Below, piece by piece: positions 18,807-32,288 of a stretch of 35,167 nucleotides of DNA; within the stretch, counting starts at the first letter, position 1, and the number at the start of each line of letters is the position of its first letter. The notes under the pieces are model-generated. The model saw nothing but the letters and a program-made list of their open reading frames with translations. It was not told where the DNA came from and ran no database searches. Source of the DNA: a virus. Taxonomy: Duplodnaviria; Caudoviricetes. Position numbers and translations under genes: made by a program. Where the stretch lies: positions 1 through 35,167 of IMG/VR virus record IMGVR_UViG_3300017589_000285. One strand, given 5' to 3'.

Positions 18807-19409
18807 TTAAATGTTTAAGCCTCTTATGAGTTCATCTGTTTCGTCTTTTGTTATCCCAATATAAGCAAGAGTAACCTCTGGTGACGAGTGATTGAGTATA
18901 TATTGAATGCGTGTGATGTCAGTCCCGGCAGTATACAAGGCGTAACCAAAAGTCTTTCTCATCGTATGAGTCCCTATTCTGCATTTAATACCCGCCTCAC
19001 GTGCCGCATTATGAAGCGCTCTCCACGCCGCAGACCTTGTAATAGACTTGCTTCCTCTTCCCTTTCTTGAGGGAAAGAGAGGCGATTCTGTCCCTTCCGG
19101 AGAGGATAGAAGCCCTGATTTTGTTATATATTCCTTAATAGCATCTTTGGCTGCTTTATTCAGCAAAATATCGCGGTTTTTCTTTGTTTTCTTCTCAATG
19201 ATTTCTATGGAGTCAGTGACCCTGATGCGGCTTGGTATCGATGCAGGATCCAGAATGTCCTCAACTTTAAGCCTGAGTATGTCAGAGGCTCTAAGACCGG
19301 TGTTTGCCCCGAAGGTAAACATGGCCCAGTCCCTTATGTTTCGTCTCTTAAGCACATGCTTGAACCGCTCAACTTCGGTCTTTTCTCTAAGTGGCTGCAC
19401 CTTCTGCAT
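18807..19409 (-). CDS. Small tyrosine recombinase (catalytic domain only)
   Basis: Intact R-K-HxxR-H-Y set: TGLRASD, EKKTKK, THTMRKTF, LNHSS, TLAYIG. Confidence 0.92.
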   Translation of the reverse strand: MQKVQPLREKTEVERFKHVLKRRNIRDWAMFTFGANTGLRASDILRLKVEDILDPASIPSRIRVTDSIEIIEKKTKKNRDILLNKAAKDAIKEYITKSGLLSSPEGTESPLFPSRKGRGSKSITRSAAWRALHNAAREAGIKCRIGTHTMRKTFGYALYTAGTDITRIQYILNHSSPEVTLAYIGITKDETDELIRGLNI

Positions 19410-22284: not shown

Positions 22285-22600
22285 TGTGATAAGCCTTAAC
22301 CCAATAGGAAGAAGAGGATTGTCCGTTTTCATCCAGACGCTTACTGATGGTTAAATAATTAAGATCTTCAAGAGTCTTGAGGGCTCTTTTCACTGATCGC
22401 CCCGAGCAACTGGCACGCTGTGCTATTTGTGATATTGCGGGTTGACAAGATCCTCCTGCTATAAATGCAAAAGTACAGATCGACGTATAAACACACTTTT
22501 CAATAGTAGAAAGCCGTTCATCTTTCCAAACGCTGATATCGATTGGCATCAAAAGAAACTCCCGCTCATCACGGATTTGGATAGTTTCATTAGTCATCAC
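22277..22600 (-). CDS. Stand-alone winged-HTH protein paralogous to the initiator N-terminus
   Basis: DERLSTIEKCVY...PAISQIAQRASCSGRSVKRALKTL. Confidence 0.8.
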   Translation of the reverse strand: MMTNETIQIRDEREFLLMPIDISVWKDERLSTIEKCVYTSICTFAFIAGGSCQPAISQIAQRASCSGRSVKRALKTLEDLNYLTISKRLDENGQSSSSYWVKAYHNA

Positions 22601-24198
22601 GCTACCTCCTCTTTCTGCATCTCATAATAATTAGCCCTGACTAACGCTTCTGCTACTGGCGGACATACTGAGTTGCCGCACATCCTGACCTGTGCTGTCT
22701 TTGTCATTGGCTTGCCGTTGTATATAGGGTCAATAATGTAGTCTGCCGGGAATCCCTGAGCGTTGAATAGCTCTCGCGGCTGTAGCATTCTTAACCCTAT
22801 GTCGGTTATGATGTAGTTTTCGCCGCCAATTGCCACTGTTACAAGTCCCATTCTGTCTTTGCCTGTTATGGTGTCCATCGGTTCGGTTAATGAACACCCA
22901 TCTTTTTCGTTGCCGTAGTATTTTGTGAGAAAGGCTGAAACTAATCCGGTTTTGCCGCTTCCTTCGGGCATTACCGTAAGCATTGGCTGGTTAATGTTCT
23001 GACCTACTGATGTACCGAACTGTCTTGTGAGTGAACATGCGGCCAGCGCATTGTGGTCTATCGCTGTCACTGTGGGCATCGGGTTGTTGATTGTCGCTCC
23101 AACCACGCCTCCGTAGTATTTGCTAAGAAATGACGACACAAGCGCATAGCGCGGATTACTGTCAATTACAAGCATGGGGTCTTTGAGCGATTGCCCCCTG
23201 ACTTCTTTGTCTGTCTTTTCGCCGTGATATTGAGTAAGAAAGGCTGAAACAAGCCCCAGTGCGTGTGGACTCCCAGCAGGGCGCGCGCTTTGTCCGCCCG
23301 CGGTGATAGTTGGAAGGGGCGCATTCAGTTCCTTCCCTGTAGCTCCGGTCCTAAATTTGGTTATGTGCGGCAAAACAAGACCAAAGGTATCTCTGCTTGT
23401 TTGTGTACGCAGAGGAACATTGATATCACATGCTTGTTTCCCGTTTTTAAAGCTCACGATGAATGGATCCGGGTTGTTAATAACAAACTTAATAATCCCT
23501 TTTGCGATACGCTCCATTGTGTTTTCTACAAGAGGCTTTTTGCGATCAAAAATACTTGGGCATGGAATGTCCCAATCTATACACTCTGCAGCCGTATGAA
23601 ACGGAACACCTGTACTTGGTCCATGGGTAGCTTCTGGCCAGGATATTTGCACATGGTCTGCGTTTGCAATAAGAAAAAATCTTTTACGTGAAGTGGGTGC
23701 TCCGTAGTCACAAGCTATAAGTTTTCGATACTCTACGGAATAACCGAGATCTTTTAATTGACGTATAAAAACATTAAATGTCTGTCCGGAAAGAGCTTTG
23801 ATAGGGTTTCCTTCTTGGTCTATTGGCCCCCATGTTTTAAATTCTTCAACGTTCTCAAGAATTATCGTTTTAGGCCTAACTGCCTTAGCCCACTTTACGG
23901 CGATCCACGCAAGCCCTCTAATCCTCGGTGATTTTGGGGCGCTTCCTTTTGCCTTAGAAAAGTGAGTGCAGTCGGGGCTTAACCACATTAAATCAACGGG
24001 CTGGCCGCCTGTTACGGCCATTGGGTCTACTCCCCAAATATCTTCGATGTAATGCTTTGTGCCGGGATGATTTGCCTTGTGCATTGCCATAGCTTCTGCG
24101 TTATGGTTGATAGCTATGTCGGGATCACGTCCAGTAGCCATGCGAATGCCAGTTGATGCACCGCCGCCACCTGCGAAAGAATCAATTATCAACCCCAT
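22597..24198 (-). CDS. DNA (cytosine-5) methyltransferase
   Basis: DSFAGGGG (motif I), SPDCTHFS (IV), LENV (VI), AQGFP and CGNSV (X); TAATG overlap gives start 24198. Confidence 0.93.
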   Translation of the reverse strand: MGLIIDSFAGGGGASTGIRMATGRDPDIAINHNAEAMAMHKANHPGTKHYIEDIWGVDPMAVTGGQPVDLMWLSPDCTHFSKAKGSAPKSPRIRGLAWIAVKWAKAVRPKTIILENVEEFKTWGPIDQEGNPIKALSGQTFNVFIRQLKDLGYSVEYRKLIACDYGAPTSRKRFFLIANADHVQISWPEATHGPSTGVPFHTAAECIDWDIPCPSIFDRKKPLVENTMERIAKGIIKFVINNPDPFIVSFKNGKQACDINVPLRTQTSRDTFGLVLPHITKFRTGATGKELNAPLPTITAGGQSARPAGSPHALGLVSAFLTQYHGEKTDKEVRGQSLKDPMLVIDSNPRYALVSSFLSKYYGGVVGATINNPMPTVTAIDHNALAACSLTRQFGTSVGQNINQPMLTVMPEGSGKTGLVSAFLTKYYGNEKDGCSLTEPMDTITGKDRMGLVTVAIGGENYIITDIGLRMLQPRELFNAQGFPADYIIDPIYNGKPMTKTAQVRMCGNSVCPPVAEALVRANYYEMQKEEVA

Positions 24199-24524
24199 TA
24201 CACAGCCTCCGTTTTCTTCTTTATAGGTAATTTCGGTGTGGGCATCCAATATTCAGGGTTGCCGGTGTTGTTGATGTCGCAATCCTTAAAGCTCGTAAAC
24301 AAACCGCCTTGGTCGGAATCAGAGTTATGGAAGTAGTTTCCTAGGCATATTTCGCCATCTGAATAGCCGATAAGGCAGGGCATTGATTTATATGGGCGAT
24401 TGTCGCAGCTCTTCCATGTCGCCGATTCAAGATTTTTAATTATTTTCATAGCTTCTTCAATTTCTATTTGGGTTAAGAGATCTTTATCTATTTTGATGGC
24501 GCTCATAATCCTATCGGTAGTCAT
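24198..24524 (-). CDS. Hypothetical protein (DUF551-like C-terminus)
   Basis: AGAGGAGG RBS; C-terminal YWMPTPKLP. Confidence 0.6.
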   Translation of the reverse strand: MTTDRIMSAIKIDKDLLTQIEIEEAMKIIKNLESATWKSCDNRPYKSMPCLIGYSDGEICLGNYFHNSDSDQGGLFTSFKDCDINNTGNPEYWMPTPKLPIKKKTEAV

Positions 24525-28604: not shown

Positions 28605-28732
28605 CACTCGATCCTCCCGTTCTTGTATTGCTTAAAATGTTTGCGGTCGCGCTTGACCTTCCATTCCGCCATGTAAACCATCAAAATCAGGGCGATTACT
28701 ACAAAGAGGGCATAGACTACGCATTCCATCAT
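28604..28732 (-). CDS. Small single-TM protein (42 aa, not in the track)
   Basis: ATGA overlap with xis; MMECVVYALFVVIALILMVYMAEWKVKR... Confidence 0.55.
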   Translation of the reverse strand: MMECVVYALFVVIALILMVYMAEWKVKRDRKHFKQYKNGRIE

Positions 28733-29115
28733 ATTTCCCCTCGTTTTCTATTGAATCTCCTGACGAGCGGAGAGGATGAAGACCTTCTTCCTGAAACCCT
28801 CTGTTCCTGCTTCCAATGGTCGAGGTCTACCTGGGAATAAACGACCTTGCTTCCCTGCTTCCGGTAATCCGGTCCTTTTGTTGTTGAGTCCTTCATCCTG
28901 CATTTATTTAGAAATGCAACTGACATCCCGGTATATGCCGCGGCTTCTTCAACGTTCATATTTTCAGGGTCTACGTCCTCCGGCAGCTTCCTTGCTTGGA
29001 CAGCTGCACCTGATTCAACAGCCCTGAGAATGATGTCAATCTTCTGTTCTAAAAAAGAGATCCTTTCATATTCTTCCTTCGGCATCATTACAAAACTCCC
29101 CGAAAATGGCTGCAT
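28729..29115 (-). CDS. Excisionase-like (HTH_17/AlpA-type) protein
   Basis: MNVEEAAAYTGMS...GPDYRKQGSKVVY...DLDHW. Confidence 0.8.
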   Translation of the reverse strand: MQPFSGSFVMMPKEEYERISFLEQKIDIILRAVESGAAVQARKLPEDVDPENMNVEEAAAYTGMSVAFLNKCRMKDSTTKGPDYRKQGSKVVYSQVDLDHWKQEQRVSGRRSSSSPLVRRFNRKRGEI

Positions 29116-29147: not shown

Positions 29148-29927
29148 TTAAGCTACTAAAGCCAGCTTCCTCTTAAGAAAATAATTGACGAAATAGACTT
29201 GTCCCTTGCCTGTTACTTTCACTGTGCGAGAGATCAGGGTGGAACCATCTGGTTTTGTTATAGTCGTTTCCTTGACTCTGAATATTCCTAGTTCCATAGA
29301 CCTTTGTGTGGGCATATTGCGGGATATTCCATACTTCATCAGGTATCCTTCGTTGCGCAGGAAATCAAACAGCCTCTTTTGCCCTATGTCGATTCCGTTC
29401 TGATGAAGAATCTTGGCCAGATCGCCTACTAATATGTCTGTTTGGCTTGTTGAAACTGCGTCGGCAAACAAAACCTTCGGGGCATCCTGTTGGACCTTCT
29501 CTGCAAGATCTGCTGCAAGTCTGAGAGCTTCAGGAAGCGTCCTGGGGATGATGAACTCGGGATTTAAAAGGGGCTCGGCTCTTTCTGGGGTCAGGTAGAC
29601 ACCATGTTTACGGATAGAAGGAAGGACTTCTTTGAATACCCAGTTTTCGAATCTGACAGCATCCGGAAGTTTTGAGTTACAGACGAGCCTGTAAACATCT
29701 GATTCTGTAATAAAAGACATTTCCTGTAAGCCTCCCGCAGTAGGGATGTTCCGTTTTAGAACACCCTTACAATGGTCCCAGATAGCCTTGTGCGGGACGG
29801 CGTAACCAAGCGCTTCGGCAACATCTCTTCCACAAAAAAGAATGGTCTCGGTGCCGAAAATTGTATCTGTAAAGGTGCGAATATTCCCAAATTTTGGATT
29901 GTTAAATATCTGTATCTCGTTGTTCAT
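29148..29927 (-). CDS. Antirepressor (Bro-N + KilA-C/ANT)
   Basis: FCGRDVAEALGY, WVFKEVLPSIRKHG, PKVLFADAV and VTGKGQVYF motifs. Confidence 0.93.
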   Translation of the reverse strand: MNNEIQIFNNPKFGNIRTFTDTIFGTETILFCGRDVAEALGYAVPHKAIWDHCKGVLKRNIPTAGGLQEMSFITESDVYRLVCNSKLPDAVRFENWVFKEVLPSIRKHGVYLTPERAEPLLNPEFIIPRTLPEALRLAADLAEKVQQDAPKVLFADAVSTSQTDILVGDLAKILHQNGIDIGQKRLFDFLRNEGYLMKYGISRNMPTQRSMELGIFRVKETTITKPDGSTLISRTVKVTGKGQVYFVNYFLKRKLALVA

Positions 29928-29968: not shown

Positions 29969-30006
29969 AAAAAAATACCCGGCACCATGACAGTCGGATA
30001 CCGGGC
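29969..30006 (-). terminator. Intrinsic terminator upstream of the antirepressor
   Basis: Minus strand GCCCGGTATC-10 nt-GGTGCCGGGT followed by ATTTTTTT (stem includes G-U pairs). Confidence 0.7.
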
Positions 30007-30051
30007 AAAATGTTCTATATGATCTAAATGAAAAGAGGTGAGTTGGAACTT

Positions 30052-30183
30052 ATGTCAGAAAACAGGGACCTACCTTTGCGGCATATAAGAGGAAATCCGG
30101 AAATTCAGCAGCCGAACATACCAAGACCACCGCAGGAAATAACTCCGGCTCCAGAACCACCAAAGGGAAAAGCTGAAAAGTAG
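30052..30183 (+). CDS. Proline-rich micropeptide (43 aa, not in the track)
   Basis: AAGAGGTGA RBS; MSENRDLPLRHIRGNPEIQQPNIPRPPQEITPAPEPPKGKAEK. Confidence 0.6.
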   Translation: MSENRDLPLRHIRGNPEIQQPNIPRPPQEITPAPEPPKGKAEK

Positions 30184-30200: not shown

Positions 30201-30842
30201 TTAGAACTTTTGAAGCGCTTTTTTCTCGACATCGGCAACCTCCATCACGAGGCCGCTGTCGAGATTTATTATCTTTGTCCATGAACTCATGACATTCCAC
30301 ATATCTCCAATATTTTCTCGTGTGAGATGCGGAAATTGATCGAGAAGAACCTCGTTATATTTTTCGTTGTAAGACATTAAAATCCCTATCTGACATATAT
30401 CCGGATTTTCAATGCGATAAACAATAGCCAACTGAACTCTAACTGCTTCTCCTTTTCCCGCTTTTTTATTGAAATAGAGAGAAAACAGATATCGAATCAT
30501 TCTTGAATCTGGCGTATCTTTTGGAAGCCCTTTAAACTTGCTGTGCCACCCAGCAGGCATGTATTCAATCTCACCCAAGGTTCTCCTTATTATTCCTGCT
30601 ATACAGCCCAGTAAAATAGCGATAACACCTGATATTGCAAGCTGAGAAAACAGATTATTGCCCCATGTTATGGCAACGGCATATCCGGGAATACCAAAAA
30701 GTGCTGCCTTAACAATTTCCATACTCTCTTTTTCTTCTTTGCCTCCATCGAAAATAAATGGCTTAAAAAAGAAAAGAGCCAAGAAACCCGGAAGGATCAG
30801 GATGATGAATTGAACAAAATCAAGTGTAGGCATTTTAGTCAC
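30201..30842 (-). CDS. Membrane protein (DUF6338-like architecture)
   Basis: ILILPGFLA N-terminal TM, two more hydrophobic segments, beta-rich soluble C-domain; start may be ATG 30833. Confidence 0.65.
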   Translation of the reverse strand: MTKMPTLDFVQFIILILPGFLALFFFKPFIFDGGKEEKESMEIVKAALFGIPGYAVAITWGNNLFSQLAISGVIAILLGCIAGIIRRTLGEIEYMPAGWHSKFKGLPKDTPDSRMIRYLFSLYFNKKAGKGEAVRVQLAIVYRIENPDICQIGILMSYNEKYNEVLLDQFPHLTRENIGDMWNVMSSWTKIINLDSGLVMEVADVEKKALQKF

Positions 30843-30899
30843 TCTCCCGCCTAATTATAACTTATGCCCGGTATTCGATTGTCATAGTGCGTGAAACTT

Positions 30900-31178
30900 C
30901 TAACCCCTTAAATCCACCGTTTCTAATAACTTCTGGCAACTTCTGACGCTGGCTTTAACTCTTTCTATCCACTCTCTGGTCGTAACTTCGTCGGCTCTTC
31001 CGTCGGCGCAATCTCTAACGATTAGTGCTATTTCGTGAGGTTCGTCGGCCAGGTCGTTTGCTAAGCGAACCGACTCCATAACATCTACAGCCCTGAGCAG
31101 AAAATCTTTAAGGTCATAACTTAAGCCGGCTTCTTCTCCCCCTGCGGGGCTACCGACCCGGCAGGGGTTGTAATAGGG
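30900..31178 (-). CDS. ORF in the -1 frame of cro (frameshift extension, or 59-aa protein from ATG 31079)
   Basis: Frame open 31232-30900; ...LSYDLKDFLLRAVDVMESVRLANDLADEPHEIALIVRDCADGRADEVTTREWIERVKASVRSCQKLLETVDLRG. Confidence 0.65.
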   Translation of the reverse strand, partial: PYYNPCRVGSPAGGEEAGLSYDLKDFLLRAVDVMESVRLANDLADEPHEIALIVRDCADGRADEVTTREWIERVKASVRSCQKLLETVDLRG

Positions 31179-31387
31179 TTTCGTTCTTGTAAAATTTTGT
31201 AAAGCTCTCCCCTTTCGAGACGGAAAACATCCTCAAGCGCTGCAATGTTGTTTGCATCCGTAGGAGGATATTTACCGCTCTCCCAGTCATACACAGTAGA
31301 ACGTGAGACACCTGTTTTTTCTGCAAGTTCAATTTGAGTGAATCCAATTTTTTTTCTTAATTCTCGTAATTTTTCACTGTAAACCAT
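31121..31387 (-). CDS. cro: Cro-like XRE HTH regulator
   Basis: GGAGGTG RBS; LRELRKKIGFTQIELAEKTGVSRSTVYDWESG; divergent from cI. Confidence 0.88.
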   Translation of the reverse strand: MVYSEKLRELRKKIGFTQIELAEKTGVSRSTVYDWESGKYPPTDANNIAALEDVFRLERGELYKILQERNPITTPAGSVAPQGEKKPA

Positions 31388-31513
31388 GACTTCACCTCCG
31401 TTTTTCATGTTCTACTATGAATTATATCCAACTTCCGCTATATGTCAAGTGTACAATGATTTTTTTTCATGGTTGGCTTGTGTTGATTTATTGGTTTGTA
31501 ATGTGTACAGTGA
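31374..31513. promoter_or_regulatory. Candidate operators GTKTACARTGA x3
   Basis: 31374-31384 (minus), 31449-31459 and 31503-31513. Confidence 0.5.
31421..31448 (-). promoter_or_regulatory. Early lytic promoter
   Basis: TTGACA-16 bp-TATAAT on the minus strand. Confidence 0.85.
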
Positions 31514-31535: not shown

Positions 31536-32288
31536 ATGCGAAACGGGGCAACGTTGCGTTTGTTACGAAAAAAGATGAAGCTAACCCAAGAGGAGCTGTC
31601 TGCAATTGTCGGTGTCTCAAGGGGCGCCATTTACGATTGGGAAAGAGATGCTTATTCACCCGAAGGGGACAACCTTATAAATCTAGCAAAAGCACTGGAC
31701 GTTTCAGTAGCTTACTTAATAGGTGAAACTGACGACCCTTCTCCCGCCGATCGGACGGCCGTCTCCGTATGTGATGTAAATTCTGATCGGAAAAAGAAAA
31801 ATGATATTAAAGAGCCTGTGCACGCTACACAACTGGATGATGTTATATTTGTTCCAATTGTTAGCAATAAAGTTGTTACTGCATGCTGCGGAAACGGATC
31901 TGCATATGCCGACGACGTCGCATGGGAATATGAAGGTCAATTTCCTGTTCCGGCAAATCTTCTGATTGGTTATACATGGCAGGGTTGCAGTTACAAGATT
32001 ATGGAAGCCGAAGGTTCAAGCATGGAGCCTTACATATATGATCGGGACAAGATCTTATTTGTTGAAGACTCTAATGTTGGTGTTGGAGATATTGTTGTTG
32101 TTTCAATTGATAATCGTCTATTCATTAAGGGAATCATAAAAATAAATGAAAAAGAATTATGCTTAAGATCATATAATTGGCAAATTTCGCCAGATAAGAC
32201 TGTCAACTTAGAAGGAGATACCGAAGTTTGTGTTATAGGTAAGGTGCTTAAAGTTGTTTCATCAAGAGACATTCCAAAGATGATTTAG
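31536..32288 (+). CDS. cI: CI-like repressor (XRE HTH + S24 peptidase)
   Basis: N-terminal HTH; catalytic Ser in GSSMEP and Lys in FIKG; C-terminal VIGKV. Confidence 0.93.
   Translation: MRNGATLRLLRKKMKLTQEELSAIVGVSRGAIYDWERDAYSPEGDNLINLAKALDVSVAYLIGETDDPSPADRTAVSVCDVNSDRKKKNDIKEPVHATQLDDVIFVPIVSNKVVTACCGNGSAYADDVAWEYEGQFPVPANLLIGYTWQGCSYKIMEAEGSSMEPYIYDRDKILFVEDSNVGVGDIVVVSIDNRLFIKGIIKINEKELCLRSYNWQISPDKTVNLEGDTEVCVIGKVLKVVSSRDIPKMI

Follow-up and report, generated by a model that had tools for sequence, protein, structure and literature searches.

In phages, programmed -1 frameshifts are known mostly from structural genes. Those of the tail chaperones G/GT and of capsid or tail proteins with Ig domains resemble the locus described here in that the shift fixes how much of a short protein is made relative to its C-terminally extended form, but the genes concerned are structural and do not encode regulators. 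IS3-family OrfA/OrfAB and IS1 InsA/InsAB' are likewise short and long products obtained by means of a -1 heptamer and a stem; in IS3, OrfA is an HTH protein and OrfAB the long fusion, both made from one gene of a mobile element. However, the motif in IS3 and IS1 is mostly of the A_AAA_AAG type and the extension is a transposase, whereas the gene analysed here would encode a phage switch regulator, with A_AAC_CCU as motif and a predicted helical domain of 70 aa as extension. A -1 frameshift in a phage cro, that of the Lactobacillus phage A2, was reportedly described by Escobedo in 2014. According to Atkins 2016 (PMC5009743), the A2 product is 12 aa shorter, and the event was seen in E. coli and is apparently irrelevant in the native host; no conserved domain is added. 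The first-pass annotation had suggested that recoding inside a lysis-lysogeny switch would be new; this has to be qualified, since A2 cro is reported to undergo -1 frameshifting, although the shift gives a shortened protein and is described for E. coli alone.

The frameshift across msi172-msi171 of ICEMlSymR7A, from which FseA originates, also yields a regulator of a mobile element's switch. It occurs in 4-13% of translations, and fused as well as split forms exist in nature (Ramsay and Ronson, 2015, PMC4755241; FseA is also treated in Atkins 2016, PMC5009743). In contrast to the present locus, FseA requires a +1 shift on UUUC and involves different domains, and the shift adds the DNA-binding part, whereas in the cro-position gene the HTH would be part of both products. 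In the passages covered, Antonov 2013 (PMC3711429) contains no cluster of HTH regulators. The Streptomyces UUA paper (PMC10732093) proposes that bypassing within a terminase gene acts as a sensor for lysis versus lysogeny; the literature covered also included the PRFect paper (PMC10885494). A literature search, with most subscription papers outside its range, returned no description of the heptamer-domain family presented below.

The window, i.e., the whole stretch of 35,167 nucleotides analysed here, is a 35-kb virus record with a lambdoid switch, in which a gene for a CI-like repressor of 250 aa with HTH_3 and peptidase S24 domains (31536..32288, plus strand) is divergent from a small Xre/HTH_3 gene (31121..31387, minus strand). 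The latter is the first gene of its operon, starts at ATG 31387 behind a GGAGG-type ribosome binding site and encodes in its zero frame an 88-aa short form with an HTH_3 domain (E 6e-14); an alternative upstream ATG at 31408 gives a 95-aa version. A pR-like sigma-70 promoter in front of this cro-position gene (TTGACA-16-TATAAT; 31421..31448, minus strand) agrees with the consensus at 12 of 12 positions and is a match to consensus only. Cro, CII and pR are used here as names by analogy of position, and by this same analogy the product of the cro-position gene may be regarded as a Cro-like early repressor. Two imperfect 17-nt repeats between cI and cro (31443-31459 and 31497-31513), one of which overlaps the -35 box, are candidates for operators. 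From the source names of relatives, which point to Synergistota hosts, we infer that the host of the window is a member of the Synergistota as well.

Directly after the HTH, the cro-position gene reads CGA AAC CCT. The in-register slippery heptamer A_AAC_CCU (31175..31181, minus strand), which encodes Asn-Pro, is followed by a 7-nt spacer (31168..31174, minus strand) and by a predicted stimulatory hairpin of 29 nt (31139..31167, minus strand) with 7+4 bp, the stem CCCCTGC...GCAGGGG and about -22 kcal/mol. All coordinates, frames and sizes given for these elements in the first-pass annotation, including the register of the heptamer, the spacer length and the GC hairpin, were recovered on recomputation; the 88-aa zero-frame product and the 162-aa fusion correspond to 9.9 kDa and 18.4 kDa, and after the slip the -1 frame stays open for 91 codons plus a stop, to position 30900. 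Taken alone, the features of the window lie within chance expectation and could be due to chance: AAACCCT occurs 7 times in the 35 kb and the 81-nt fold at the locus has a z of -0.5. The 42-nt segment after the heptamer reaches z = -3.0, the top value of 68 windows across the gene, and the other six AAACCCT sites are without such a hairpin (-2.5 to -8.2 versus -22.2 kcal/mol at the cro site). It is because of conservation across relatives that the signal goes far beyond chance. The independent contig X1, which covers 30700-31449, differs by 25 substitutions, two of them in the variable spacer, and has the heptamer and the stem unchanged; as it contains no gap, the frame change is no assembly error.

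HTH-based scans of viral, metagenome and genome collections, after removal of duplicates or near-duplicates (L001, L014, L017, L099, L109-L111, L128, L131, L133, L148, L150, and L166-L169), retained 18 loci with Asn-Pro codons at this position, 16 of them with the full heptamer. The split layout is present in 15 loci, and all of these read xxA-AAC-CCT, while the residue preceding Asn-Pro varies (R, S, A, V, Q, or G); the lack of heptamer conservation that the first-pass annotation named as counter-evidence is not seen. Among 23 other columns with a conserved residue (Trp aside), just one, a Tyr, has an invariant codon in these 15 loci. Asn-Pro is found in 62 of 71 family proteins, and the preceding residue always has a codon that can end in A. 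L122 and L126 have A_AAT_CCT, weak hairpins and a -1 frame of only 24 codons; in both, the heptamer has decayed and the extension is gone. L153 (589-1056) keeps AAACCCT inside an in-frame fusion of the HTH with a different helical tail, where a -1 shift would truncate the protein, i.e., the reverse logic. Eight further HTH-found loci lack Asn-Pro; in three of them (L154, L156, and L162) the HTH is joined in frame to the domain that the -1 frame otherwise encodes, and five (L155 and L157-L160) are HTH-only. Because of these HTH-only loci and the nine of 71 proteins without Asn-Pro, the long form seems to be dispensable in some elements.

Relatives were also collected through the added domain, with the domain-only profile A6 (18 rows), which begins well after the heptamer and thus excludes it. 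Of 268 Synergistota genomes, 37 gave matches, 58 in all, and the domain-found set, made up of 30 returned loci and 26 fetched regions with hits of at least 15 bits, comprises 57 distinct hits. An in-register AAACCCT lies upstream within the open frame in 39 of the 57, with about 0.006 expected per locus; three of these 39 loci (L178, L181, and one of the L183 copies) had contributed to the alignment from which A6 was built, and locus counts overstate independence because many loci are kin. The zero-frame ORF has a Pfam HTH match in 37 of the 39, a divergent HTH gene lies upstream in 34 (three of the other five have less than 330 bases upstream), and in none of the 39 is the -1 frame interrupted between heptamer and domain, so that the stops named as counter-evidence in the first-pass annotation are absent from these relatives. 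The HTHs of these loci are 15-53% identical to that of the window, with a median pairwise identity of 26%. The 18 hits without an in-register AAACCCT consist of nine clear and one probable in-frame fusions of HTH and domain, two split loci and six copies without an adjacent HTH. Both split loci keep C_CCU (L197, TGC CCT TTT; L216, GAC CCT), and the first A plus AAC are invariant in 39 of the 41 split domain-found loci. L197 also forms a C_CCU_UUU heptamer in register. Among the 57 hits, no adjacent HTH stands in the frame that would need a +1 shift.

The natural fusions comprise 12 proteins of 150-171 aa, in all of which the domain follows an HTH_3; P0129 is another. On the domain tree (50 rows, 76 columns), which is weakly resolved, midpoint-rooted and gives no direction of change, the fused label requires three changes, at least two of them forced by well-supported branches, so that conversion between the split and the fused state has happened more than once. 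Units of HTH, heptamer and domain occur in tandem at G031:C1:1083000-1088300 (L152, L161, L183, and L217), in L187 and in L225, and in L183 two identical domains stand in different layouts, one of them split from its HTH and the other joined in frame to a different HTH. The viral contig L082 (1500-1810) has an HTH, AAACCCT, a hairpin and a -1 frame of 102 codons, which has diverged beyond what the domain profile can score; the family is probably wider than found here.

Conservation of the hairpin, for which the first-pass annotation had proposed a check, holds for most loci and not for all. Compared with the other windows of its locus, the 42-nt segment after the heptamer folds most strongly in 14 of 15 HTH-found split loci and in 29 of 39 domain-found loci, but not in the other 10; only 22 of the 39 reach a z below -2, and L149/L181 and L185 have no good hairpin. 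The spacing to the stem is 4-7 nt, and distant loci form it from unrelated stem sequences. In 11 close loci the lower part of the stem hardly varies; just 1 of 11 pairs shows a two-sided compensatory change, and covariation among these loci is weak. A role of the hairpin as a terminator on either strand was rejected, as a U-run after the stem or an A-run before it is absent in 39 of 39 loci.

The heptamer is in register and conserved beyond the needs of the protein, a stable structure follows within the 4-10 nt that Sharma 2014 (PMC4066793) gives as a rule for stems 3' of the heptamer, the -1 frame is open, selected and without a start of its own, and fused homologues exist. These features make it very probable that the conserved A_AAC_CCU and the hairpin program a -1 ribosomal frameshift in the cro-position gene. 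The ribosome would pause at the hairpin while AAC (Asn) occupies the P site and CCU (Pro) the A site, tRNA-Asn and tRNA-Pro would slip in tandem and re-pair on AAA and CCC, and reading would continue as ...RNP-YYNPCR. Most ribosomes would thus make the 88-aa HTH-only regulator and a minority the 162-aa form with the predicted three-helix domain. According to Sharma 2014 (PMC4066793), a strong stimulator allows 61 of 64 heptamers to pass in E. coli, CCN codons are less prone to shift than AAN or UUN, and the efficient motifs listed do not include A_AAC_CCU; C_CC.U is among six shift-prone tetramers, and A_AA.C_CC.A stays below threshold, a difference which the invariant U of the heptamer fits. 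Given this weak motif class in E. coli, the long form is expected to be minor, and the efficiency of the frameshift is probably low, at a guess under 10%.

The extension (30900..31174, minus strand) consists of a linker of about 18 codons and a domain of some 70 aa (at about 31121-30903, minus strand), for which three helices and a D-x(2-3)-DG turn are predicted. The helical appearance noted earlier is borne out by AlphaFold2, which predicts helices at 4-23, 28-39, and 46-68 of the domain (pLDDT 92). No match was found in Pfam, PHROG or the PDB. With a likelihood only slightly short of even, the added domain might be a module for self-association or partner binding, and in the long form the shared DNA-binding head could then bind more tightly or activate; the frameshift would thereby determine in what proportion the lysis-lysogeny switch receives two regulators of equal operator specificity.

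We prefer this role over that of a CII-type activator of a repressor-establishment promoter, by which one gene would take over the roles of Cro and CII and which we regard as rather doubtful. The 186 CII/Phage_CP76 proteins (PF06892) resemble the long form in their size of about 160-170 aa, N-terminal HTH, helical C-terminal part and location in the early lytic operon, and a structure of CII has been solved (6VLI); unlike the long form, 186 CII is encoded by a separate gene after apl and involves no recoding. The cro-position gene is the first of a pR-like operon, and no other CII-like gene was seen among the scanned neighbours. The likeness to the C-terminus of 186 CII, which had been seen by eye, remains a weak lead: in a comparison with ten 186-type CII proteins, hhalign aligns the DG turn and the last helix with the C-terminal part of CII at scores of 18-20, while 60 column shuffles, which are a weak control where proteins are helical, do not exceed 11.7. 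However, E is about 0.01 with a probability of just 3-4%, the match is not significant, among the families listed for the members, up to an E of 1, PF06892 does not appear, and CII sequences score below 1 bit against the domain profile. Moreover, the common HTH would direct both forms to the same operators, unlike Cro and CII, and no pE-like promoter was identified.

That the extension is instead a small gene of its own, coupled to cro and starting at ATG 31079 or at a non-canonical codon, with the heptamer and hairpin either incidental or controlling its initiation, is highly improbable. The internal ATG (31077..31079, minus strand) is the start of a caller-used 59-aa ORF, gene callers annotate proteins of 52-63 aa from this Met (P0003 and P0125-P0128), and it is retained among the closest relatives. 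However, Met 31079 sits inside predicted helix 1, and the ATG, the first ATG/GTG/TTG in the -1 frame of the window, is not conserved: contigs from the X1 and X3 runs, the former near-identical, have ATA at this codon. The weak ribosome binding site previously noted there turned out to lack any Shine-Dalgarno-like word. Among the 39 domain-found loci, 22 have no early enough ATG/GTG/TTG and only three a Shine-Dalgarno-like word, and in L149/L181 the extension of 86 codons contains no start codon whatever. The codons 5' of ATG 31079 are under coding selection, a point that the first-pass annotation had proposed to check: in nine close loci, 11 of 16 substitutions in the 10 codons before this ATG, all of them beyond the cro stop, fall on third positions, with nine synonymous versus six non-synonymous variants. 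Fusions of HTH and domain exist, and the frame relation is always -1. Initiation at 31079 only, which had been held against frameshifting, cannot account for the family.

There is equally little reason to expect transcriptional slippage, or single-tRNA slippage on C_CCU instead of tandem slippage on the heptamer. L197 and L216 retain just C_CCU, and C_CC.U tetramers shift in E. coli given a strong stimulator (Sharma 2014, PMC4066793). Yet the longest homopolymer run is 3, the direction is always -1, the spacing of 4-7 nt to the stem suits a ribosome and not a polymerase, and the invariance of the first A and AAC in nearly all split loci argues for re-pairing in the P site; besides, single-tRNA slippage is a variant of the main explanation with an identical junction. 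Least probable of all is that the heptamer and hairpin form an RNA or DNA control site (terminator, antitermination, processing, or recombination) or an Asn-Pro linker in front of a domain that is a decaying remnant of fused ancestors, for although HTH heads are swapped exactly here, as at a recombination junction, and six orphan domain copies exist, the stems lack the U- and A-runs in 39 loci, a motif needed only in the protein would leave three synonymous positions unfixed, and the domain is under coding selection behind a frame open to the heptamer in all 39.

The unit of heptamer, hairpin and domain behaves as a portable cassette that is kept while the HTH head swaps between immunity types. 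In L170, L171 and L173 a cassette close to that of the window stands behind unrelated HTHs, which shows head exchange at the site. Right after the stop of the extension lies a conserved 24-bp motif (30866..30889, minus strand), with a second, inverted copy at about 29983-30006 (plus strand); the two inward-facing copies bracket convergent genes at 30028-30183 (plus strand) and 30201-30842 (minus strand). The motif also precedes variable genes in L006-L008, L127, L130, L170, L171, L173, L186, L187, L193, L197, L215 (three times), and L218-L220, and is a candidate for an accessory-gene promoter or leader, a recombination site for cassettes or a target of the long form. The early region further contains, on the minus strand, a Bro-N/ANT antirepressor gene (29148-29927), an HTH_17 excisionase-like gene (28729-29115) and, by eye, a probable cytosine methyltransferase gene (22597-24249); a 200-aa ORF (18807-19409, minus strand) between replication and packaging genes resembles, by eye, a short tyrosine recombinase.

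The locus would be part of a conserved recoding family at the centre of the lysis-lysogeny switch, with at least 39 loci from prophages of one phylum, the Synergistota, and an unusual slippery motif that is used almost invariantly, and it defines a protein domain without a Pfam or PHROG family. In databases such loci are misannotated as a short HTH protein and a truncated orphan of 52-63 aa. Split, fused, decayed and variant alleles provide a natural panel for studying a frameshift-set ratio in a bistable switch. That, from the one gene, a frameshift dependent on proline tRNA determines how much lytic repressor is made relative to a CII-like activator of lysogeny is unlikely, a little more so than the CII-type role as such; if true, the translation state of the host, with the charging or modification of tRNA-Pro and the ribosome load, would feed directly into the lysis-lysogeny decision.
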